DNA from: an uncultured bacterium
Lineage (GTDB): Bacteria; Armatimonadota; Abditibacteriia; Abditibacteriales; Abditibacteriaceae
Assembly: GCA_963843795.1 (NCBI GenBank)
Contig: CAWJLW010000006.1
Coordinates: forward strand, 744,001-808,000
Direction: 5' to 3'
Length of the DNA: 64,000 nt
Shown here: positions 1 to 55,054 of the stretch, piece after piece
Position numbering within the stretch: the stretch's first letter is position 1
Layout of the letters: the number at the start of each line of letters is the position of its first letter
The notes under the pieces: generated by a model
Databases searched by the model: none
Told to the model about the DNA's origin: nothing
The model's input: the letters and a program-made list of their open reading frames with translations, nothing else
Program-made: the position numbers and the translations under genes

Positions 1-260
1 GCTTTCACCAAGGAACGCAGCGCATTGGCGACACGACCATCGCGGCCAATCACACGTCCGATATCTTCTTCATGAACGCGCACGCCATAAACCGAGCCGA
101 CATTATCGAAAAATTCTTCGACTTCGACTTCGTCGGGATGGCCAACGATATTCTGCACCAGATAACCGACCAGCTCGATTAAACGCGCGTCTTCTGCGGC
201 GGGCACGTCGTAGGCTGAGACATCGAATTCATCGTCCTGCGTGTTTTGATCGTCACTCAT
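1..260 (-). CDS. khpA: KH-domain RNA-binding protein (KhpA/YlqC family), runs off the left edge
   Basis: Manual translation: MSDDQ...LIELVGYLVQNIVGHPDEVEVEE...VHEEDIGRVIGRDGRVANALRSLVK. It has the KH GxxG loop and lies directly downstream of rpsP. Confidence 0.85.
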   Translation of the reverse strand, partial: MSDDQNTQDDEFDVSAYDVPAAEDARLIELVGYLVQNIVGHPDEVEVEEFFDNVGSVYGVRVHEEDIGRVIGRDGRVANALRSLVK

Positions 261-283
261 AACGTTTTCTCACACGAAAAAAA

Positions 284-616
284 TTAGGCAACAGCTTCGG
301 CAGGCTTGGCTTCTTCGGACGCGACCGGCGCAGTTTCATTCTGAGCGGCTTCGGCAGGAATCACTTTGTTGCTGGAATCGGTGATACCAGCTTTGCGCAG
401 CAAGGACGCCACCGTTTCGCTGGGCGAAGCACCCTGACTGAGCCATTTACGTGCTTTGTCGCCATCAATTTCGCAAACCGAAGGCTGACGTGTCGGCAGA
501 TAATAACCGATGCTGTCGATAAAACGGCCATCGCGCGGGCTATTCTGATCGGCGACCACAATACGATACGCCGGGTTGTTCTTGGCGCCGGTACGGCGCA
601 AACGAATACGAACCAT
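284..616 (-). CDS. rpsP: 30S ribosomal protein S16
   Basis: MVRIRLRRTGAKNNPAYRIVVADQNSPRDGRFID; ATG at 616 preceded by a GGAGAG Shine-Dalgarno (SD) sequence. Confidence 0.97.
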   Translation of the reverse strand: MVRIRLRRTGAKNNPAYRIVVADQNSPRDGRFIDSIGYYLPTRQPSVCEIDGDKARKWLSQGASPSETVASLLRKAGITDSSNKVIPAEAAQNETAPVASEEAKPAEAVA

Positions 617-45074: not shown

Positions 45075-46289
45075 TCAGTGCCCGCACCAATTCGAGGGCA
45101 AGCACAATTTGGAATGAGTTTGCGAAGCGAAACGGTCGGTCATGCCAGCGATATAATCGCAGACGCGCCGCGCCAGTTGCTTCGTATCGCCAAGCGTTTC
45201 ATCGGTGACTTCAATCTCGGGAGCAGAATCGGAGGTATTGACGGGCAAAATCGCCGCAGGTCGCATCAAATGCGGACGCGCCATAAAACAATCGAACAAT
45301 CCGTTGATAACAGTTTGCACACGCGACGATTCGTCCACACTTTCCAGGGTATAAACATGACTGAACATCCACGTTTTGAGCGCATCGGTCGCCTGTCTCA
45401 CGTCATCCTTCATCGCGATAGTCTCATGAGCCAGCCGCTGCCCGTTACGCACGCTGCTTGAAGCCAGAACTACCGCTAAAACCATGGTTGTGATGCGCTC
45501 GCCATGAGTTTTGCCCAGCACTTTGATGCAATCTGAAGGCAATTCTTCGGCCCGAATCAAGCCGGCGCGGCGCGCGTCGTCGATGTCGTGATTGACATAA
45601 GCGATGCGGTCGCAGATGCGCACGACCTGACCTTCCAAAGTAGAAGGCATAACGTGCGTGCCATCCAAATCTTTTTCGCCTTTGGAGTGGTACAAAATAC
45701 CGTCGCGTGTTTCCCAGGTCAGGTTCAATCCCTGCCCATGATTTTCGAGTTCGTCCACGATGCGCAACGATTGCTCGTAATGGCGAAAATGAGCGTCGGG
45801 ATCGTAGCGCCGATAAGCCGCATCCAGTGCGGCCTCGCCGACATGACCAAAGGGCGCATGGCCCAGATCATGGCCCATGCCAATGGCTTCGACCAAATCT
45901 TCGTTCAAGCGCAACGCACGCGCGACGGTGCGCGCGATTTGCGTGACTTCCAGCGTGTGGGTGAGTCGCGTGCGATAATGATCGCGTTCGGGTGAAACGA
46001 AAACCTGCGTTTTGTGCTTGAGGCGGCGGAAGGCTTTGCAGTGAATGATGCGGTCGCGATCGCGTTGCCACTGCGTGCGCACGGCGTCTTCGGCCTCGGG
46101 CGCTGCGCGTCCACGCGAACGCAGGGCGTGCGCGGCGCGCGGGTCGAGCCACACTTCTTCGCGCTGTTCAGTGGCGCGCCGCAAAAAAGAGAGATCGAGC
46201 GACGATTCGTCGTCCAATAAAGAATCATCTAACGATGAATCGTTTACAGGCAATTCATCTGAAGAATCCAGGGAATCAAGAGAATTCAT
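45075..46289 (-). CDS. dgt: Deoxyguanosinetriphosphate triphosphohydrolase (HD-domain dNTPase)
   Basis: QRDRDRIIHCKAFRRLKHKTQV, RTRLTHTLEV, HDLGHAPFGH, DRIAYVNHDIDD, DYIAGMTD. Confidence 0.93.
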   Translation of the reverse strand: MNSLDSLDSSDELPVNDSSLDDSLLDDESSLDLSFLRRATEQREEVWLDPRAAHALRSRGRAAPEAEDAVRTQWQRDRDRIIHCKAFRRLKHKTQVFVSPERDHYRTRLTHTLEVTQIARTVARALRLNEDLVEAIGMGHDLGHAPFGHVGEAALDAAYRRYDPDAHFRHYEQSLRIVDELENHGQGLNLTWETRDGILYHSKGEKDLDGTHVMPSTLEGQVVRICDRIAYVNHDIDDARRAGLIRAEELPSDCIKVLGKTHGERITTMVLAVVLASSSVRNGQRLAHETIAMKDDVRQATDALKTWMFSHVYTLESVDESSRVQTVINGLFDCFMARPHLMRPAAILPVNTSDSAPEIEVTDETLGDTKQLARRVCDYIAGMTDRFASQTHSKLCLPSNWCGH

Positions 46290-46362
46290 AACGTTTGACC
46301 GAGCAGTATTTTGTGTAACAGGCGCAGTGTGCCACAACAGGTCCCGATGACGCTGCAAGTAC

Positions 46363-46392
46363 TTGCAGCACGATTGAATTTTGCATTACAAT
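46363..46392 (+). promoter_or_regulatory. Putative sigma70 promoter for the candidate retron ncRNA
   Basis: TTGCAG (46363-46368, overlapping the iterated palindrome), 18-bp spacer, TACAAT (46387-46392). Confidence 0.45.
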
Positions 46393-46404
46393 TGTTTTCA
46401 TCGA

Positions 46405-46632
46405 ATGGTTCCAAAACAGTCGGCAATTTGTCCGCGATGTTTCGTCGTGGCCGTTCTTACGCTTTCATTCCATCACGGGTCGCCGGTGCGATTTCACCCC
46501 GTCCCGGTTCAGTAGTGCGCCCCCATCACGCTGAGACAGCACGCTCGTGGCGGCGGCGCACTACTGAACCGGGACGGGGTTACAGTGACCAGCGCCCGTC
46601 CTTTCTTGTTGAGCGACTGTTCTAAAAACCAT
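46405..46632 (+). ncRNA. Candidate retron msr-msd ncRNA
   Basis: Outer inverted repeats ATGGTT..AACAGTCG (46405-46422) and CGACTGTT..AACCAT (46614-46632), an unpaired G at 46423, short hairpins at about 46432-46491, and a perfect 26-bp stem (46496-46521 with 46555-46580). It lies upstream of a retron-RT operon. Confidence 0.7.
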
Positions 46633-46636
46633 CACT

Positions 46637-46682
46637 AAAATGCCGCCGCAAGTACTTGTACCCTAACTTGCGGCGGCATTTT
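46637..46682. terminator. Intrinsic terminator-like hairpin closing the candidate ncRNA
   Basis: AAAATGCCGCCGCAAGT...ACTTGCGGCGGCATTTT, 17-bp arms. Confidence 0.75.
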
Positions 46683-46742
46683 GCGTATTTAAAATTAGTT
46701 GAACCCCCGTAGAAAATTCATAACCTGCCATTGAAGTTGTGG

Positions 46743-46771
46743 TTGACGCAATAGAAGATCTCACATAAAAT
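46743..46771 (+). promoter_or_regulatory. Near-consensus sigma70 promoter for the three-gene RT operon
   Basis: TTGACG, 17-bp spacer, TAAAAT. Confidence 0.7.
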
Positions 46772-46980
46772 AAGTGTAATTAAATTTGCTTGTTTCGAAC
46801 GGTATTTTGACTTTGATACCTGCTTGTGTCTGTTGTTATCCTCTCATTTTATTGAGGATAATATGCCTACAATCTCCACCTCCCGTTTTTGTTTAATGAT
46901 CCCAACGCGCGGGTGTTTCTTCTGCAAGTTCAGTGGTTTTTCAGCAGCTCTCAAAACTTTTATTATATTCAGGTGCCGCC

Positions 46981-49900
46981 ATGACTTCAGCCGAAATTCA
47001 TGCGCTTGTTGAACGATTCGAGAGCTTAAATTCCAATGAGCGTGCTATTTTGCTCGATTGGGCGCGCACTGTCTCCCTGCATTATGGCGCGTGGCAGCCC
47101 TTCAAACGTTTGTATAAAACATTGGATACGCGTGCTCTTGATGGGAAAAACGAATTATCGTCGGATGAGATTGCTTCGTTGGCTGCGATGATGGGACGTC
47201 TGGATACGGCGACCATTGCTCAATCGGGGCCGCGTTTACAGGCGATTGAGTTACCCGAGCAGAATTGGCCCGCCAAGCGTGCGAAATGGAATGGCTTGAC
47301 CCTGTTTGTTTCGGGACGAACGCGCTATGACTGGAAAGGTTGGCGCTTGTTGGTGGCAGAAGATGCCGGACAATCACGTTGGAGCGAAAGTTTTTCGACT
47401 TTGCGGCGCCTCGCCGGTTTGTCTGCCAACGCGTTGGGACCACAAAACGAATCCGATAAAATTAAAAATATTCGCGCCGCCTGGGATTTCAATGCGCGCG
47501 ATTATATCGGTCAAGTTGAAAAAATTGAACTGAATGGCGACATACTGACGATTCAGTGCGCTTACGGCGGCCGTGGCGCTCAATTCACCGTCGATATCAG
47601 CGATCCGGCTTTTCCGCATCTCGCCACAAGCGCGCCCAAACCTGCAACTTGGCAATACATGAAACGCCGCGTGCGTCGTCTGCTGCGTGAACTCAGCGCA
47701 AATCAACCCTCACGTTACTGGGCTTTGCTCAAGGCTCTGCTGCACGAAAGCGCGGAGTTGCAGTCCGATGGTTCTATCAATCCTGAAAGTCAGTGGGCGC
47801 TGATGTGGGCATTGTATGGAAACGGCACGCGTTGGGCGCAAAAAGGTCCTGGCCGAGGCGCTTATCGTCTGCAAGCGAATTCGCTGAAGTGGCAACGCAC
47901 GCGACGCGAAGAAATGCATCCCGAAATTTGGAATGCGCATCTGGACGAAATGCGCGATTTGTCGCTGAATGAGACCGTGCCAGTGCAAGCGAATTTAATC
48001 GCGCTGCAAGTACTTGCAGCGGCTAATCAAGAGTGGCCCGCACTTTCGTCCACCCAAGCCTTGCGGTTTTTAAATAGCGACGTTCTCTGGCTCAAATCGC
48101 TGGCAACGCGAGTGATTGGTAAGCGCTGGTTGGCGGGCGAAAGGGTGTCGGGAGCGCTGGCTGCCGCAACGATTTTACTGGCCAATGCGCCTTTGCGTCG
48201 CCAGTTACAACTCTCGCTGGAAAATGTGCTTCGTGGCACTGATAAAAAGTGGTGCGGCGAATTTATGGCACAGGCGCTGGAAACCTTGAAATTTAATCCT
48301 AAAAATCGGCGCGGACGTTTGGCTGCTCATTATTTGGCGCTTCATGGACGCGATACAGTGAGTAACGATAACTTGTTTGCCTATTTAGGTTTATGGTTGG
48401 AATTGAGCAAACAATCGGCAAATTGGGCACTGGAGCGCGTACGCCAAGCGGGCGCGCAAGGTGAGGCCAGTCGGTTGGCTGCGATTGCTGCCCTGCCCGA
48501 AGGGCAATGCGAACAGGCTCTGGCGGCGTTTTTGGAGCGTGCGGGTGAAACAAACCCGACGATATCGCAAGCTTGGGAACAGGTTTCGTGCGAGGAACGC
48601 GCGCGTAATGAAGTGGGCTGGCGTTATTTGGAAGCAACTGGAATTGAATCAACAGTGCTGCGGGAGTTGTGGAAACGGTTGTTAAATGGTTGGTACGACG
48701 AGGATATTTTTGCGCCTGCGTTTGGCAGTTCCGCCGGTGCAAACTTGTTTTTGCGCGCCAACTGGCAGGTCAAAGATGTGGCCGATTGGTTCAAAAACTA
48801 TTATTCAGGCTGGACGAAAATGCAGCCGCATTTGTCGGTCGAATTCGCGCGCGCTGTGATGAGTTTCGTACCTAAAGATGAAATTGCCCATCGCATTTTC
48901 AATGCTTTGCCAAAGCTCAAAGCCGAAGCGGCACCGCAAATTGCTGAAGCGTTTTTCGACCGTGCGCGCGATTTTTCGCCTACAGCACAGGAAATTCGCA
49001 ACTCAATTTTAACGGTTGGTGCGAGCTGGCCCTACACCCCAAGTGCGCCTGAAGCTATGGCCGCGACGTGGCGTTTTCTCGAAGCCTCGGCTGTGACTGA
49101 AGTGGTTTTGCAGGAAGTGTGGCAGCAGTTGTTTGCACCCAATCAGATAAGAGACCACGTCGCGCCCGCTATTGCTTTGTTGCGGCGAGCCAATCTCAGC
49201 GAAGACCAAATCGAAAAATGGCTACAAAGTTCTCCCGATTTAGCCACGATGTTTACTCCTAACTTTTTTGGCGCGCTGTTTTCGCTTTGTTCGGGCGCCG
49301 GCAAGGTGGCACTTGCGGTTGGCGCGACGCCCGAACAGTGGTGTGCCGTGCGGCCCCTCTTGCTGCGAGTGCTGGATAACGTCAATTTGCGCGTTTCGTT
49401 CTGGAAAAGCATCTGGGAACAATTGCGTGAAAACGCGGAAAGTTTGCAAGAGCGTTTACTGAGCGATAGTGAAATTCTCGCGACTTTTGTGCTTCTGGAC
49501 AACGCCGCCGTTGCCGAAATGATGGCAACTAATGAAGACGCGCACGCGCCGCTTTTGGGGCGTTGGCTCGACGCGCACCACGACGAATTGATGCGCGATG
49601 ACGTGGCTCTCATTGCTGCGGCAACTTGCCCGCTTCCGCCCATTCGTGAGCGGGGATTGGCGCGCGTGCGCGAAATTGGCCTTGATTTGCCGCTCGCTTT
49701 GCGTTTAATCGAATCGAATTTGCCCCCAGCGATGGAACTGGCACAAGAGTGGTTTCAGAAAACCGAAACTGGCATTGAAGCTGAAACCGAACTTGCCCTC
49801 GCGCTCTGCGACAGCCCGCAGGCGGCGGTGCGCGCGTGGGGCCGCAATTTCGTGACGCAGCGCGCTGATAGGCTTTTAAATTCCGCTCTTTTGAAAAACC

Positions 49901-50211
49901 TTAGCGAAAGTGGCGATGCATACAATCAAGCGTTCGTCGCGCAGCAGTTGGAGAAACGCAGGGCAAACTTCGATACTGCGGAATTTGATAAAGCGGTGCT
50001 GAAAAGTCGCGGTCGCGCGCGTCAAGCAAAAAACGCTGTGCAAAAGCGCTTGTCACACGAACTCGATAGCTCGATGAACGTGGAAGCTCTGCTTGAATTG
50101 GCGCGTGGACGCGTGCCTCGCGACCGCGAGTGGGCCCTGCAACAATTGGCGCGTCTAGCGCAAAATGGCACAAACATCGACGGCGTTGAGCTGGTTTCAC
50201 CCAAAGCGTAA
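46981..50211 (+). CDS. Large (about 1076 aa) hypothetical protein, probably helical-repeat; retron-associated
   Basis: Long uninterrupted ORF rich in Leu/Ala/Trp with no recognisable catalytic motif; first gene of the RT operon. Confidence 0.75.
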   Translation: MTSAEIHALVERFESLNSNERAILLDWARTVSLHYGAWQPFKRLYKTLDTRALDGKNELSSDEIASLAAMMGRLDTATIAQSGPRLQAIELPEQNWPAKRAKWNGLTLFVSGRTRYDWKGWRLLVAEDAGQSRWSESFSTLRRLAGLSANALGPQNESDKIKNIRAAWDFNARDYIGQVEKIELNGDILTIQCAYGGRGAQFTVDISDPAFPHLATSAPKPATWQYMKRRVRRLLRELSANQPSRYWALLKALLHESAELQSDGSINPESQWALMWALYGNGTRWAQKGPGRGAYRLQANSLKWQRTRREEMHPEIWNAHLDEMRDLSLNETVPVQANLIALQVLAAANQEWPALSSTQALRFLNSDVLWLKSLATRVIGKRWLAGERVSGALAAATILLANAPLRRQLQLSLENVLRGTDKKWCGEFMAQALETLKFNPKNRRGRLAAHYLALHGRDTVSNDNLFAYLGLWLELSKQSANWALERVRQAGAQGEASRLAAIAALPEGQCEQALAAFLERAGETNPTISQAWEQVSCEERARNEVGWRYLEATGIESTVLRELWKRLLNGWYDEDIFAPAFGSSAGANLFLRANWQVKDVADWFKNYYSGWTKMQPHLSVEFARAVMSFVPKDEIAHRIFNALPKLKAEAAPQIAEAFFDRARDFSPTAQEIRNSILTVGASWPYTPSAPEAMAATWRFLEASAVTEVVLQEVWQQLFAPNQIRDHVAPAIALLRRANLSEDQIEKWLQSSPDLATMFTPNFFGALFSLCSGAGKVALAVGATPEQWCAVRPLLLRVLDNVNLRVSFWKSIWEQLRENAESLQERLLSDSEILATFVLLDNAAVAEMMATNEDAHAPLLGRWLDAHHDELMRDDVALIAAATCPLPPIRERGLARVREIGLDLPLALRLIESNLPPAMELAQEWFQKTETGIEAETELALALCDSPQAAVRAWGRNFVTQRADRLLNSALLKNLSESGDAYNQAFVAQQLEKRRANFDTAEFDKAVLKSRGRARQAKNAVQKRLSHELDSSMNVEALLELARGRVPRDREWALQQLARLAQNGTNIDGVELVSPKA

Positions 50212-50340
50212 AGCACGCTATGCGTAAAGTGTTGAGCAAGTACTTGCGAGCGGTCACGAATCAGTTTTCGTTTCAAATAGCACTTTAAATAGCACTCTGC
50301 AAGGGCCTGCAGAACCAGCCTGTTTACAAATGGTTATTCA

Positions 50341-52326
50341 ATGGAAATCACACAATCGTACGCGAAACCCTCAAGCGCCGCGCCCCGTGGTGAAGGCACG
50401 AACTTTTCGCTTTCAATTCAATCCGAGCGTCCGCCGGTTGCGCTGCAAGCGCTGGTTCTGGATAGCTTGAGTTACGCGCGCGCTATGCTTGCTTTGCACG
50501 AAGTTGTGTCAGGCGATTTGCGCTTCAAGGAAAAAGATCACAGCGCGTATCAAACTTGGGTGCAAGGCCAATATCTTCAAGAACTCGACGCCGTCGCGGG
50601 CGCGCGTTTACGCGCTTTGCCGGGCCAGCACGAGCAATTACAGCGCGTGCGTGAGGCGATGGCACCGCTGCAGAAGCGCGAGCGCGAATTGTATCGCGAC
50701 TATGATGGCGGCGATATGCGGAAAGCCAAAACGCGCTATTGGAAGTACTTGTATACGCACAATAAGGCGTTGTGGTGGCTGCTCGATCCTGTGGTTTCCG
50801 TGCATCCCGATAGCGTGATTTTTGAAGTGTTTTCACAAGATGAATCGAGTTATGGCCGCGTAACCGTTCCGATGGAAAAATTGGATACCATTGGCGAAAC
50901 CGTGTTCGGGACGACGAATGTCGATTTTTCGCAGCGTTTGGCCGATGAATTCAAGCGCGTGCGCAATTATCGTCCGGCGTTTCTGGAAATCGGCGGTGGT
51001 GGCGTCGCGGTTTCGACTTCAGCGGGCACGCAATTCGAGAAAAAAATTGACTTGCCTCCTTCGTGGGTGCGCGGCTTTTTGCAAGTGCAAAGCGCATCAA
51101 GTTTGCCAGGCGAAACCGTGATTTTATCATCAGCAACTGTTAGCGAATTGTTGCTGGTAATGCGTCAACGACGCGAAAAAGGTGGACCGCGCTCGCTGCG
51201 CTTCAAACTGTCACCAAATCAAAAGCCGATCATCGAAATCGAACCGTGGAACATCGAAATTTCAGAGCCGACGCAAATCTGGCAGGGCAGTGGGGCGCAG
51301 GAAATTCGTATCTGGGGCCGTCGTCGTTTGTTCGTTTTAGAATCGCTATTGGCGCACGCACAAACCGTGCAAATCAAGCTCTTGGGTAGCGGAATGCCTT
51401 CCTACTGGAGTGTCGAGCAGGGTGAAGGAGGTCATCGTTTTGAGCTAGGTTTGAGCGGTTGGACAAAAAATGATTGGTCGGGCGCAGCGCGTTTTGACTT
51501 GTTGGCTTCGACGCAAGAAGTGACTGAAGGCGACGTCGAACTAGCTGCCACTCAGTTACAGAATGAATTGAAAATTACGCCCGCCGAACTCGCTCAACGC
51601 AGTGATTTATCACAAAGCAGCGCGACCGGTGCGCTTCAAGAGTTGTGCAAGCAAGGACGCGCGATGTACGATGCGACGCAGGGCGCGTATCGCTGGCGTC
51701 AATTGTTGCCATTTCCAGCGCCCCAAAGCGAAGAAGATAGCCGTCTGGCTGCAGCCAGACGCTACGTACAGCAGAGCGCGGTGAAATGCAAAGAGATCAC
51801 CAATTCGGATGGTTTAAGCGAGTTTTTAGAGCATCAGCTTCAAGACGGCGCGCGCTTGTTCGAGGCGAGCGTAAAAACGACCGGTGGCACGTTCTCGCCG
51901 ACCATCGGTTTGGACGCCGATGGTCGTGCGCGTTTCGCGCAATGTACCTGCGGCGAATTCCGGCGCGATAAGCTGCGTAAAGGCCCGTGCGCGCATATTC
52001 TGGCGGCGTGCGTTATCGCGGCGCAAATGCAAAGCGCTAGCGCGCAGCCAGTCGACCGTTTCAAAGGCCAGACATGGGTTTTTACGGGCGCTTTAAGCTT
52101 GTTCACGCGTGAGCAGGCCGAAAAGCTCATTACCGATGGTGGCGGCAAAGCTAGCGGCAGCGTATCGAAAAATACAACGTATCTGGTAGTCGGTGAACGC
52201 GCTGGCTCGAAATTGGACAAAGCCAAAGACTTGGGTGTGCCAGTAATAACCGAAGCACAATTCGGGCAAGTCCTTGCGGGCAAAGATGTAGCAGCGGTGG
52301 TGCAATCGAGCGAGGCGAAAGCATGA
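50341..52326 (+). CDS. SWIM zinc-finger protein with a C-terminal BRCT domain; retron-associated
   Basis: CTCGEFRRDKLRKGPCAH matches SWIM CxCx(n)CxH. FKGQTWVFTGAL...REQAEKLI..GGKASGSVSKNTTYLVVGERAGSKLDKAKDLGVPVITE resembles a LigA-type BRCT domain. Confidence 0.88.
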   Translation: MEITQSYAKPSSAAPRGEGTNFSLSIQSERPPVALQALVLDSLSYARAMLALHEVVSGDLRFKEKDHSAYQTWVQGQYLQELDAVAGARLRALPGQHEQLQRVREAMAPLQKRERELYRDYDGGDMRKAKTRYWKYLYTHNKALWWLLDPVVSVHPDSVIFEVFSQDESSYGRVTVPMEKLDTIGETVFGTTNVDFSQRLADEFKRVRNYRPAFLEIGGGGVAVSTSAGTQFEKKIDLPPSWVRGFLQVQSASSLPGETVILSSATVSELLLVMRQRREKGGPRSLRFKLSPNQKPIIEIEPWNIEISEPTQIWQGSGAQEIRIWGRRRLFVLESLLAHAQTVQIKLLGSGMPSYWSVEQGEGGHRFELGLSGWTKNDWSGAARFDLLASTQEVTEGDVELAATQLQNELKITPAELAQRSDLSQSSATGALQELCKQGRAMYDATQGAYRWRQLLPFPAPQSEEDSRLAAARRYVQQSAVKCKEITNSDGLSEFLEHQLQDGARLFEASVKTTGGTFSPTIGLDADGRARFAQCTCGEFRRDKLRKGPCAHILAACVIAAQMQSASAQPVDRFKGQTWVFTGALSLFTREQAEKLITDGGGKASGSVSKNTTYLVVGERAGSKLDKAKDLGVPVITEAQFGQVLAGKDVAAVVQSSEAKA

Positions 52327-53765
52327 GCGACGAGCAAAAGACCAAGGGCAAGGAAGAATGGCGCACTCGCTACCAACAGTTGGGCAAACGCGCTTTTGAA
52401 CTGGAAGAAATGGAACGGTTGGGCTTCTGGCCGCCCGACGAGGAAACGCAACAGCGAACCGAAGCCGTGCGCCGCGAACTGCGCGAAGTTCAAAACAAAT
52501 TGGCTCCGCTGCGGAAAGAACAGCACGAACTGGAAAAAGCGATTTCCGAGAGCAGCGACATTGCCGCGTTGCTGGCCGAAGTGCGCTCGCGGCGCATCGA
52601 GCGTGTGAAAGCCGAACGCGCGATTCGCAAAATGCGTCGCACCGAAAAAGCTGAACAAAAAGCCGAAGCTGACCGAAAATGGCGTGAGAAAAATTTGCCG
52701 CATCTGGGCCGCGATGTTTCACAGGGCTTGCAATATGAAGGCGGTTCGGATGACAAGCTGCAAGTACTTGCGCTGCCACTTTTGCACTCAGCGGAAGAAA
52801 TCGCGGCTGCGATGGAAATCGAAACCCAGAATCTGGCGTGGTTGTGCTATCATCGTGGTGCGTCGAAAGTCGATCATTACGTACATTTTTCAATTCCCAA
52901 GAAAAGCGGTGGGCTGCGTTCGATTTCCAGCCCCAAAGCGCAAATGCGTGATGCGCAAAGCTGGATTTTGGAAAATATTCTGCAATCGGTGCCGATTCAC
53001 TCCGCCGCCTTTGCGTTTCGCAGGGGAATTAGCATCGCCGACAACGCGCGCTTCCACGCCAGATGCGCGGTCGTTGTGCGTATCGACTTAAAAGATTTTT
53101 TCCCTTCTATTACTTTTGGGCGCGTGAAAAATGCGTTTGTGGGTTTGGGTTACAACGAAGGAGTGGCCTCGATTTTCGCACTCATCTGTACCGAAGCGCC
53201 GCGGTTGGCATTGCGCTTGGATAGACAGATTCACCACGTGGCTTTGAGCGAGCGTTTTCTGCCGCAAGGCGCGTGCACCAGTCCCGTGTTGACCAACATT
53301 TTGTGTCGCCATCTGGATGCACGCATGACTGGCGCGGCACAAAAATTAGGCTTCACTTATTCGCGTTATGCAGACGACTTAGTGTTCTCCAGTGATAATG
53401 AGCGCGCCAATATCGTGGGTTTGCAGAAGTTGGCATCGCTCATTGTCGAGCAGGAGAATCTGCAAATCAACGCTGCCAAAACTTCCATTATGCGCCCGCA
53501 TTGCCGCCAGAGTGTGACTGGGTTGGTTGTGAACCGGGCCGATGGCGTCAACGAAATTCGCGTTTCGCGACGCGACTTGCGGAAGTTTCGCGCTTTTTTG
53601 CATCGCTACGAAACGTTGGGCTGCGAAGTGTTGAGCAATCAAATCGGTCAAGACGCTCTCAGTTATGCGCGCGGCTATTTATCCTTCATTCACATGGTCA
53701 ACGCAAGTCAAGCCGCACAAATTCGCTCTGCACATTCATGGCTGGAATCGCCAGAAAGTACTTGA
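52323..53765 (+). CDS. Retron-type reverse transcriptase with a long charged N-terminal extension
   Basis: IPKKSGGLRSI, NARFH (region X), DLKDFFPSI, LPQGACTSP, YSRYADDL, QSVTGLVVN (region Y); ATGA overlap with the upstream gene. Confidence 0.93.
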   Translation: MSDEQKTKGKEEWRTRYQQLGKRAFELEEMERLGFWPPDEETQQRTEAVRRELREVQNKLAPLRKEQHELEKAISESSDIAALLAEVRSRRIERVKAERAIRKMRRTEKAEQKAEADRKWREKNLPHLGRDVSQGLQYEGGSDDKLQVLALPLLHSAEEIAAAMEIETQNLAWLCYHRGASKVDHYVHFSIPKKSGGLRSISSPKAQMRDAQSWILENILQSVPIHSAAFAFRRGISIADNARFHARCAVVVRIDLKDFFPSITFGRVKNAFVGLGYNEGVASIFALICTEAPRLALRLDRQIHHVALSERFLPQGACTSPVLTNILCRHLDARMTGAAQKLGFTYSRYADDLVFSSDNERANIVGLQKLASLIVEQENLQINAAKTSIMRPHCRQSVTGLVVNRADGVNEIRVSRRDLRKFRAFLHRYETLGCEVLSNQIGQDALSYARGYLSFIHMVNASQAAQIRSAHSWLESPEST

Positions 53766-53975: not shown

Positions 53976-54986
53976 TCATTTTTCTGCCATTTCCTTCCAG
54001 CGCTCATCGGCGAAGCGCAGGGAATCGTGATAATGTTGAGTCAGAAATTCCCATGTGTGGTCGCCGGGAAAGATGTGCGCTTCGAAGTCGATATGGCGCG
54101 CTTGCAGTTCGGCTTCCATTTTTTTGAATTCGTCCAGCAAATCGTCGTCGGCACCAACATCCATATACAAATGCAGTCGCGTGCCAGTTGGCAAGGCGCG
54201 CACCAAGCGTAGAGGGCTGTTCTGCTGCCACAGCGGGCCGGGCGAGCCGAGAAAACGCGTCATGGCTTTGGGGTCGTCATTGGGATCGAAGAAGCCCGAA
54301 TGGGAAGCCATCACCGTCCACACCTTGGGATGTTTGAGGCCCAAGTTTGCCGCGCCGTAACCGCCTGCCGAAAAGCCAATTAGCGCGCGCGATTGGGCGT
54401 CAGCACGGGTGCGAAAATGGGCGTCGATCCACGGCACCAGTTCTTGCACCGTGAAATCTTCCATCGCAATGCCATCGCGCCGATTTAGATAATACGTGGT
54501 GTCCTCGACGCCTTTTGGCCCTGTCCCGTCCCATCCGACTAAAATTAGTGATGCGATTTGCCCGCTTGTAATCAGCTTTTCGGCCACGCGATGCACGCGC
54601 GCATTGACAAAGCAATCGCGCACGCCGCCCGGCGCGCCGTGCAAGATATAAGCGACCGGATAACGAGCGTTGGTTTGCTCTTGATAATTTGGCGGCAAAT
54701 AGACCCACACGTTCGATTTGCGCTTCAAGCGCGAGCTATATGGCATCGAAAGGCGCAGCAGTTGGCCACGCAAGCCCGCGACCAGAGCGATATCTTGCTT
54801 TTTGAGCAGCGCCAAATGTTTGGCCTTATCCGCTGACAGCGTGGCCGTCGGTTTCGCTGTCGCTTGAGGTTTGGTTGCAATTGTCTTCGGCGGTGCGGCG
54901 GTGGAAGCGTTTTGGGGTGCGCAGGACAGTTGGGGCAGCACGGTGGCCAAGGCAAATATGCAGCTAATGGAAAGGTTGAATTTCAT
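53976..54986 (-). CDS. Alpha/beta-hydrolase esterase, probable lipoprotein
   Basis: Signal peptide with LSC; VYLPPNY, LHG, GFSAGG nucleophile elbow, GDHTW. Confidence 0.88.
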   Translation of the reverse strand: MKFNLSISCIFALATVLPQLSCAPQNASTAAPPKTIATKPQATAKPTATLSADKAKHLALLKKQDIALVAGLRGQLLRLSMPYSSRLKRKSNVWVYLPPNYQEQTNARYPVAYILHGAPGGVRDCFVNARVHRVAEKLITSGQIASLILVGWDGTGPKGVEDTTYYLNRRDGIAMEDFTVQELVPWIDAHFRTRADAQSRALIGFSAGGYGAANLGLKHPKVWTVMASHSGFFDPNDDPKAMTRFLGSPGPLWQQNSPLRLVRALPTGTRLHLYMDVGADDDLLDEFKKMEAELQARHIDFEAHIFPGDHTWEFLTQHYHDSLRFADERWKEMAEK

Positions 54987-55054
54987 GAAAAAGGCCTGTC
55001 GGAATCTGTGAATTTTTACAGGCACGATTACGATTGGGTTGCGTCGTGCGCGCT

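Follow-up and report, generated by a model that had tools for sequence, protein, structure and literature searches.

A probable type XIII retron of an uncultured Abditibacteriaceae bacterium with its msr-msd gene at the head of the operon

The genome of an uncultured bacterium of the family Abditibacteriaceae carries, in a 64,000-nucleotide stretch (the window, the whole of the DNA analysed here), a reverse transcriptase (RT) gene preceded by two larger genes and a structured element. This arrangement raises the question of whether the parts make up a retron and, if so, what such a retron would do. Type XIII includes the first retrons found, msDNA having been discovered in myxobacteria in 1984. 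A preliminary description had read the locus as an intact retron of this type, resembling Mx162, and this reading is supported by PADLOC matches to the RT_XIII and SWIM_XIII models, by the RT tree and by a type XIII RNA. The locus is thus almost certainly an intact type XIII retron, belonging to a sub-clade whose msr-msd gene heads the operon and is tied to the HEAT gene, not to the RT.

Layout of the locus and its reverse transcriptase

The three ORFs and the ATGA coupling of the last two were found where they had been reported (Table 1), and the order given for them, RNA first and RT last, also holds, the RNA lying ahead of both partner genes and the RT being the third ORF. The retron-diagnostic motifs ascribed to the RT were located as NARFH at residue 241, YADD at 349 and VTG at 398, and N241, H245, Y349-D352, T399 and G400 are invariant in 77 RT homologues. 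PADLOC assigned the protein to RT_XIII (492 bits, E 5e-148), the second-best model reaching 277 bits. In an unrooted tree of 107 RTs it was placed with relatives from myxobacteria, Bacteroidota and cyanobacteria; the RTs of Mx162, Mx65, Sa163 and Ne144 are not in this tree, and placement in clade 10 derives from the PADLOC models and fetched loci. Homologues of the HEAT and SWIM partners occur with the RT homologues.

Table 1 Features of the locus (nucleotide positions in the window; residue numbers refer to the SWIM protein).
Feature	Position	Strand	Remarks
Possible ncRNA promoter, TTGCAG-18-TACAAT	46363..46392	+	by eye; absent from promoter scan list
Type XIII msr-msd ncRNA	46405..46632	+	best window match of model R1; covariation; single copy in genome
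5' terminal arm	46405..46422	+	RNA fold; pairs with 46614-46632
Predicted branching G	46423	+	directly 3' of 5' arm
Conserved msr hairpin, TTT loop	46432..46450	+	also in RT-adjacent type XIII RNAs; 97% of cells paired
msd long stem-loop	46496..46580	+	complementary arms, covariation
Terminator-like hairpin on genome-wide palindrome	46637..46682	+	17-bp perfect arms; local feature
Sigma-70-like promoter, TTGACG-17-TAAAAT	46743..46771	+	ahead of three genes; 10 of 12 match
HEAT/ARM-like partner ORF	46981-50211	+	1076 aa from ATG; 1092 aa from GTG 46933
SWIM_XIII protein ORF	50341-52326	+	661 aa
PCNA-like clamp fold	residues ~32-375		predicted structure; long helical insertion ~60-145
Winged helix	residues ~395-458		predicted
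SWIM finger	C535-x-C537-x12-C550-x-H552		
BRCT, LigA/RFC-type	residues 572-641		
Retron reverse transcriptase ORF	52323-53765	+	480 aa; ATGA overlap with SWIM gene

The lineage had been called unexpected, a view that finds no support in view of RT matches in 30 of 201 genomes of the phylum Armatimonadota and in 12 of the 18 other genomes of the family, the remaining 171 and 6 genomes searched giving none. Three genomes carry two paralogous systems. The neighbours of the locus are housekeeping genes; its position is not fixed, and the genes that flank it in the window did not turn up next to the system in the other loci. Type XIII is described as the retron type with the broadest taxonomic spread in the accessible text of PMC13712802.

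The msr-msd RNA and its distance from the RT gene

The msr-msd-like element noticed at the head of the locus proved to be real. Its msd arms (46496-46530/46546-46580) form a stem of 35 bp with 91% complementarity, the fold has a z-score of -9.3 and was equalled by 0 of 100 shuffles (the stretch folded also contains the downstream hairpin), and homologues occupy the same locus position in relatives. Covariation was seen over 25 copies, with changes on both sides at 24 of 24 pairs of the msd stem, and in 23 of these copies the 5' and 3' ends form at least 8 pairs. Paired ends, a short msr hairpin, a long msd stem and a G after the 5' arm, as expected of a retron RNA, are thus all present. The structure agrees with the type XIII class as represented by R1, a model of our own built exclusively from RT-adjacent RNAs, 30 in number, of type XIII loci, for which the best match in the window (E 0.0016, next 0.41) spans the msr part only; Rfam gave no retron match. 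In alignments, G46423 falls on the G of TAGC that is invariant among related copies, and it is probably the branch site, and the msDNA is predicted to be ~140 nt long, copied from ~46613 back to ~46470. Some relatives carry the RNA gene in tandem arrays, with as many as six members whose stems differ.

Near-consensus promoters lie directly ahead of the RNA in several relatives (L111, L113, L116); the -35 element of the possible ncRNA promoter found here overlaps a genome-wide palindrome. The near-consensus promoter reported ahead of the genes is present as TTGACG-17-TAAAAT, which is weak taken alone since the scan found 10 sites where 5.5 +/- 2.2 would be expected at random. The palindrome, with 2567 copies in the genome, accounts for the repeats at 46355-46366 and within the 46637-46682 hairpin, which were ruled out as retron arms. 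Separate termination of the ncRNA, as first proposed, has become a weak and local feature: the terminator scan did not list the hairpin, and the gap between RNA and HEAT gene is 358 nt here, but measured 4-223 nt in 19 relatives.

The RNA lies 5.7 kb upstream of the RT gene with two genes between them, and across the clade this distance is 5-8.5 kb or the two are unlinked. A contiguous cassette is the usual description of a retron, with exceptions in print in which ORFs lie between msd and RT, as in the Vc95/Ec83 group (PMC6868368, available part); RNA and RT are not contiguous here, so the locus is filed as a retron variant and not as a plain member. Relatives in the Bacteroidota have retained the parts, although these are scattered. 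They lie at least ~100 kb apart in genome G201, and RT and HEAT genes are separated by 52 kb in G215 and 28 kb in G217; as many assemblies are fragmented, location on a different contig proves distance in some genomes only. The literature searched, as far as its text was accessible, yielded no report of unlinked retron parts or of an RNA separated from its RT by 5-8.5 kb. A pipeline confined to the sequence immediately 5' of the RT gene would class the whole clade as lacking an RNA. A distant or unlinked RNA broadens the notion of a retron, and the clade is a source of new natural RT-RNA pairs, which apparently function when transcribed separately.

Partner proteins

The 1076-aa gene product, at first taken for an orphan, corresponds to the HEAT partner known from type XIII. 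Its hhalign comparison with canonical WGR_XIII proteins gave a probability of 99.8 over 683 columns, starting at template position 267, and single-sequence PADLOC matches were weak (E 3e-10, 8e-10). No WGR domain was found in it; judged by these alignments, it is the type XIII HEAT/ARM partner minus the N-terminal WGR domain, a domain that type XIII partners have or lack according to their cluster. By insert length, residues ~76-215 are what is left, in shortened form, of a variable insert; in relatives it consists of LVIVD repeats (LVIVD in 13 of 33 homologues).

The second gene encodes a SWIM_XIII protein (PADLOC E 5e-170) in which the SWIM (525-557) and BRCT (572-641) domains previously noted both exceed the Pfam cut-offs, the BRCT being a lineage feature. 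The DEDE motif occurs at the published spacing (D149, D157, E162, D195, E233; 97-100% conserved over 77 sequences, in which D167 and E168 are invariant) and, with the winged helix and the SWIM CxCx12CxH finger, places the protein in cluster 114. The predicted model displays the two-domain clamp fold of the PCNA family, and clamps, BRCT and winged-helix domains make up its 50 best structural matches; a PCNA-like clamp fold is therefore predicted. A shared clamp fold by itself is no proof of function, and the numerous acidic residues that are invariant in the clamp domain would suit an enzyme too.

Sister loci include an in-operon PARP with WGR, regulatory and catalytic domains, whose catalytic-triad motifs show H, Y and E, which we take to be the triad of DNA-dependent PARPs. 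All these loci belong to one genus and one clade and represent one event; the counts of co-occurrence across genomes come from related organisms and could reflect genome size. PARP, WGR and microbial PARG were not found in the present genome (92% complete; the PARP family control matched nowhere), nor did tblastn with the sister PARP give a match in it, so PARP is not a required part. The WGR-PARP is the first enzyme candidate for a type XIII output.

Possible mode of action and related systems

A mechanism for type XIII retrons was not found in the literature searched. We favour, with a probability of about 45%, a DNA-end sentinel composed of msDNA, SWIM clamp and HEAT scaffold and passing a signal to an output. 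The RNA would fold and the RT prime on the 2'-OH of G46423, giving, by analogy with retron biochemistry, a branched msDNA of ~140 nt with a long duplex stem that could mimic a DNA end or nick. The SWIM protein would hold it, clamp fold and winged helix gripping the duplex and the BRCT reading the end or junction, while the HEAT protein would be the scaffold of the complex; the parts could assemble from separate transcripts. Disturbed DNA ends, whether through phage end-binding or recombination proteins or through DNA damage, may be the trigger. The output would probably be the WGR-PARP, using NAD+, in sister loci; in this genome, where no enzyme output was found, it might come from a partner not linked to the locus or from the clamp complex, which would itself block DNA.

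The locus had been presented as a defence module lacking a classic toxin domain, and it could be an ordinary abortive-infection retron, in which msDNA-RT restrains a SWIM or HEAT toxin released by phage. This alternative is possible, if doubtful. Most retrons tested were anti-phage (8 of 11; bioRxiv 2020.06.21.156273, accessible text), presence is patchy in the family, the genes flanking it in the window were not seen beside it in other loci, and RNA arrays with differing stems could broaden sensing; however, those 11 systems all came from E. coli, Salmonella and Vibrio, and no toxin domain was indeed found in the locus. In the surroundings, only 5 of 106 neighbouring ORFs gave PADLOC matches, partial or candidate (no control set; flanks of a few kb), with no clear system among them, and the parts are dispersed in related genomes, those of Bacteroidota being scattered yet kept, unlike mobile cassettes. 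A search of 50,697 phage records found no full-length SWIM homologue; one of 72,556 plasmid records found 9, all on records of >700 kb. If this were only another such retron, the locus would be a rearranged known system.

A domesticated DNA-repair or stress helper without anti-phage role, its msDNA storing, loading or regulating a second clamp and scaffold, seems unlikely. All recognisable modules (clamp, winged helix, SWIM, BRCT, WGR, PARP) are of DNA-damage type, and the housekeeping neighbours, the dispersed parts and the vertical inheritance and possible domestication of type XIII reported by Mestre et al. (PMC7736814, available part) would fit, whereas the RT was not found in most of the phylum genomes searched or in a third of those of the family, three genomes hold paralogous systems and the position is not fixed. 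This alternative overlaps the sentinel, differing in trigger and output only. Still less probable is that the SWIM protein is a nuclease- or transposase-like enzyme and the effector, as its conserved DEDE motif (Mestre et al.) might imply: the acidic residues lie on strands and turns of the predicted clamp domain, the 50 best structural matches are of the three kinds given above, and a profile search of solved chains matched no enzyme. For the core partner, the clamp prediction would supersede this published suggestion, and it points to residues for mutation. Finally, an RT of another class beside a chance hairpin or repeat, suggested by the abundant palindrome flanking the element and the blank in Rfam, is refuted by the type XIII RT and its tree, the strong covariation and a single-copy RNA homologous to RT-adjacent ones.

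Extending the sentinel to the whole type, type XIII might be a bacterial DNA-break surveillance built from eukaryote-like parts, an msDNA break mimic setting or reporting on a PCNA-like clamp as well as, in systems that have one, a DNA-dependent PARP, with one branch domesticated into unlinked trans-acting genes and arrays of up to six RNAs giving different msDNA stems. This is a long shot, rather improbable as a whole; if true, it would account for the finding of msDNA in myxobacteria in 1984.

Compared with known systems, the predicted SWIM fold shares 6-15% identity with PCNA, 9-1-1 and beta sliding clamps and herpesvirus processivity factors, but adds a long helical insertion and a fused winged helix, SWIM and BRCT; no clamp loader is linked, and a ring is putative. 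The sister-locus PARP has the domains of DNA-dependent PARPs (PARP1/2/3 type), and BRCT and WGR recur on retron partners, but such PARPs were not found in this genome, and the activity of the sister PARP and its link to msDNA are predicted only. Retrons of the Vc95/Ec83 group likewise have ORFs between RNA and RT gene but belong to another retron group, and the branching G stands in CGGC here versus TAGC or CAGC named for retrons (PMC6868368, available part). Closest are the type XIII retrons of RT clade 10, given as Retron-Mxa1/Mx162, Mxa2/Mx65, Sau1/Sa163 and Nex2/Ne144 in the accessible part of Mestre et al. 2020 (PMC7736814). Shared with these are an RT with a long N-terminal extension, a SWIM protein of cluster 114 that has both the winged helix and the DEDE motif, a HEAT/ARM partner ahead of the SWIM gene, and an RNA in which the identical msr hairpin occurs along with a long msd stem; the present locus differs in its non-contiguous RNA, placed before both partner genes, in the coupling of RT and SWIM genes, in a HEAT protein without WGR and a SWIM protein with BRCT, and in having relatives with unlinked parts or an added PARP gene.

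Components of the type XIII operon

The locus holds three ORFs on the plus strand (1076, 661 and 480 aa), flanked by a gene and an ORF on the minus strand, and its GC content does not deviate from that of the rest of the window. All the RT motifs named in the preliminary description (NARFH, YADD and VTG) are present, as is the ATGA overlap by which it had coupled the SWIM and RT ORFs. Its reading of the locus as a retron was borne out by PADLOC, which matched the RT to RT_XIII (E 5e-148; next model 1e-82), the 661-aa protein to SWIM_XIII (E 5e-170) and the big protein of the HEAT gene weakly to WGR_XIII and HEAT-ARM_XIII, as it did 28 of 33 aligned homologues. Type XIII retrons are defined by these partner proteins in the accessible text of Mestre et al. 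(PMC7736814). A profile of the 33 homologues aligned with 22 canonical WGR_XIII proteins (probability 99.8, 683 columns); as this alignment begins only at template position 267, the big protein lacks the WGR domain. Its residues 76-215 form a variable insert. The length of this insert is 114-620 aa among relatives from Armatimonadota, compared with 8 aa in three from Bacteroidota, and LVIVD repeats are present in it in 13 of the 33 homologues. The nearest named relative of the RT, at 60% identity, is labelled Abditibacteriaceae, and the next matches are records from Armatimonadota. Shorter, divergent SWIM homologues were seen in G201 and G202 (C493), on contigs other than that of the RT, and likewise among Streptomyces plasmid matches (H10-H19).

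Coordinates of features in the window, related loci (L) and genomes (G; C, contig)
Feature	Location	Strand	Remark
HD phosphohydrolase gene (HD + HD_assoc)	45075-46358	minus	left flank
Type XIII msr-msd RNA	46405-46632	plus	head of operon
msd long stem-loop	46496-46580	plus	
HEAT gene	46981-50211	plus	
Short degenerate direct repeats	50198-50229		gap between HEAT and SWIM genes
SWIM gene	50341-52326	plus	
RT gene	52323-53765	plus	
ORF	53976-55025	minus	right flank
WGR-PARP gene	L127:9586-10875		in retron operon; also L128, L132, L134, L135, L136; partial in L130
WGR-domain gene	L009:8937-9890		between SWIM and RT; one Bacteroidota RNA-first locus
Divergent SWIM homologue	G201:C16:1224327-1225442		
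RNA array	G201:C29:45254-46892		L157
TROVE/Ro60 gene	L119:2526-4187		adjoins RNA; single locus, probably chance
Exonuclease VII large-subunit gene	L111:9129-10370		adjoins RNA; single locus, probably chance

The 12-bp palindrome GCAAGTACTTGC flanks the RNA and does not belong to it. It occurs 2567 times in the genome, where it is the commonest 12-mer and falls inside coding sequence too. Its 10-base core has 44 copies in the window (e.g. 46355-46366, 48006-48017 and 52760-52771), and it was not found in the loci of nine relatives checked. We take it to resemble highly iterated palindromes or uptake sequences.

The msr-msd RNA and the order of the operon

The RNA at the head of the operon, single-copy in this genome, is a real type XIII msr-msd. 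A model (R1) was built from 30 aligned RNAs that immediately precede canonical type XIII RTs outside Armatimonadota. Its best hit in the 64-kb window was 46432-46504 (E 0.0016, against 0.41 for the next), the aligned portion being the msr only, and on 55 other loci it gave 26 matches, many of them full-length and at the operon head. Over 25 head-position copies, which are kin and whose structure was derived by RNAalifold from the same alignment, 91.9% of cells were paired, versus 61.8% on shuffling and 33-45% on sliding, and 24 of 24 msd pairs had changes on both sides. The RNA ends are joined by at least 8 pairs in 23 of the 25, and in the fold of the window's RNA G46423 is unpaired immediately after the terminal stem; retron priming is 2'-5', on a G after the terminal stem, as stated in PMC6868368.

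Of 201 phylum genomes, 30 gave RT matches (E 1e-40 or better); two of these matches are weak, and no partner genes accompany them. The RNA-first, RT-last order, which the preliminary description had considered unusual, is a clade trait: the RNA lies 5.1-8.5 kb upstream of the RT, before the HEAT gene, in 26 of 30 loci of the same RT type (two of the 26 had been in the model training set), it was beside the RT in none of the 30, and in the remaining four a contig edge falls before or at its expected position. In an unrooted FastTree tree of 107 RTs (six rows left out), a branch with support 100 sets apart the 32 RNA-first rows, and the side that they form also includes Bacteroidota rows. On 150 phylum genomes a further model, R2, detected the RNA in 20, with the RT present in 18; the two without an RT match are both fragmented. 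The RNA and the HEAT gene are 4-223 nt apart in 19 relatives and are therefore likely on one transcript there. A gap of 358 nt, containing a hairpin and a second promoter, is specific to the window.

RNA copies may be multiple. In the G201 array, five copies were scored and a sixth is degenerate; their msr is shared and their msd stems differ. Arrays of this kind precede the HEAT gene also in G206, G207, G208, G209 and G212, and pairs in L114, L115, L120, L009 and L015. In L020, L021, L027, L029 and L035, a canonical type XIII RT is immediately preceded by two to four RNA genes. For cyanobacterial RTs of the group (L064, L067, L069, L075, L077), the RNA-model match is downstream of the RT, with no SWIM match within the locus.

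Scattered parts and PARP genes

Among 31 Bacteroidota genomes around G201, the RT type (called at E below 1e-110) was present in 13, together with the RNA and the SWIM gene in all 13 and the HEAT gene in 12; the RNA was found in one of the other 18 genomes. The RNA and the RT were on separate contigs in 13 of 13. In G201 the lengths of the contigs put the parts at least ~100 kb apart, and the RT-HEAT distance within one contig is 52 kb in G215 and 28 kb in G217; elsewhere in the sample, fragmented assemblies may be the cause of separation. SWIM-RT adjacency is kept in six genomes, and in eight the RNA, often arrayed, is directly before the HEAT gene. Because it adjoins this gene, away from the RT, we infer that the RNA travels with the HEAT gene and reaches the RT in trans in these Bacteroidota.

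A 430-aa PARP gene (WGR-regulatory-catalytic) lies between the RNA and the HEAT gene in six loci of one clade, and in one cut by the contig end. In these six loci the SWIM protein measures ~570 aa and has no BRCT, and BRCT-type and PARP-type loci occur together in three genomes. Of the 201 phylum genomes, 15 had PARP homologues, and 13 of these 15 also carry the RT; among the Bacteroidota genomes around G201, they were present in 11 of the 13 that bear the RT versus 0 of the other 18. These counts represent kin and not independent trials. Searches of the genome of the window found no PARP homologue.

Proposed mechanism and known retrons

The reading we prefer, at a probability of about 0.45, is that an msDNA of ~140 nt with a long duplex would be captured by the predicted PCNA-like clamp of the SWIM protein, the winged helix and BRCT, with the HEAT protein as scaffold; disturbed DNA ends would cause release or rearrangement of the complex, and the output would be PARP in loci having one. 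A classical Abi retron is rather unlikely, and a defence role of the locus is possible. At E 1e-10, PADLOC matched 5 of 106 neighbours, as helicase, ABC or candidate families, a count from short flanks without a control set (120 ORFs listed; the 14 excluded were truncated where a locus ends, shared sequence with the RNA or with a second ORF, or were additional copies of the PARP gene). Save for one weak esterase match, none of the three genes that flank the system in the window turned up next to it in other loci. In the accessible text of Millman et al. (bioRxiv 2020.06.21.156273), the retrons tested are enterobacterial and Vibrio only, and two retron clades are rarely near defence genes. A pure repair or stress role is improbable, and that the SWIM protein acts as an enzyme through its acidic DEDE motif is more doubtful still.

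The literature searched (Mestre et al. without its supplement) yielded no mention of the clamp fold, the dispersal or the PARP link, and the accessible main text of PMC13712802 mentions neither BRCT nor Armatimonadota. The system type itself, type XIII, is already catalogued, and PMC6868368 describes a different retron group in which ORFs likewise lie between msd and RT.
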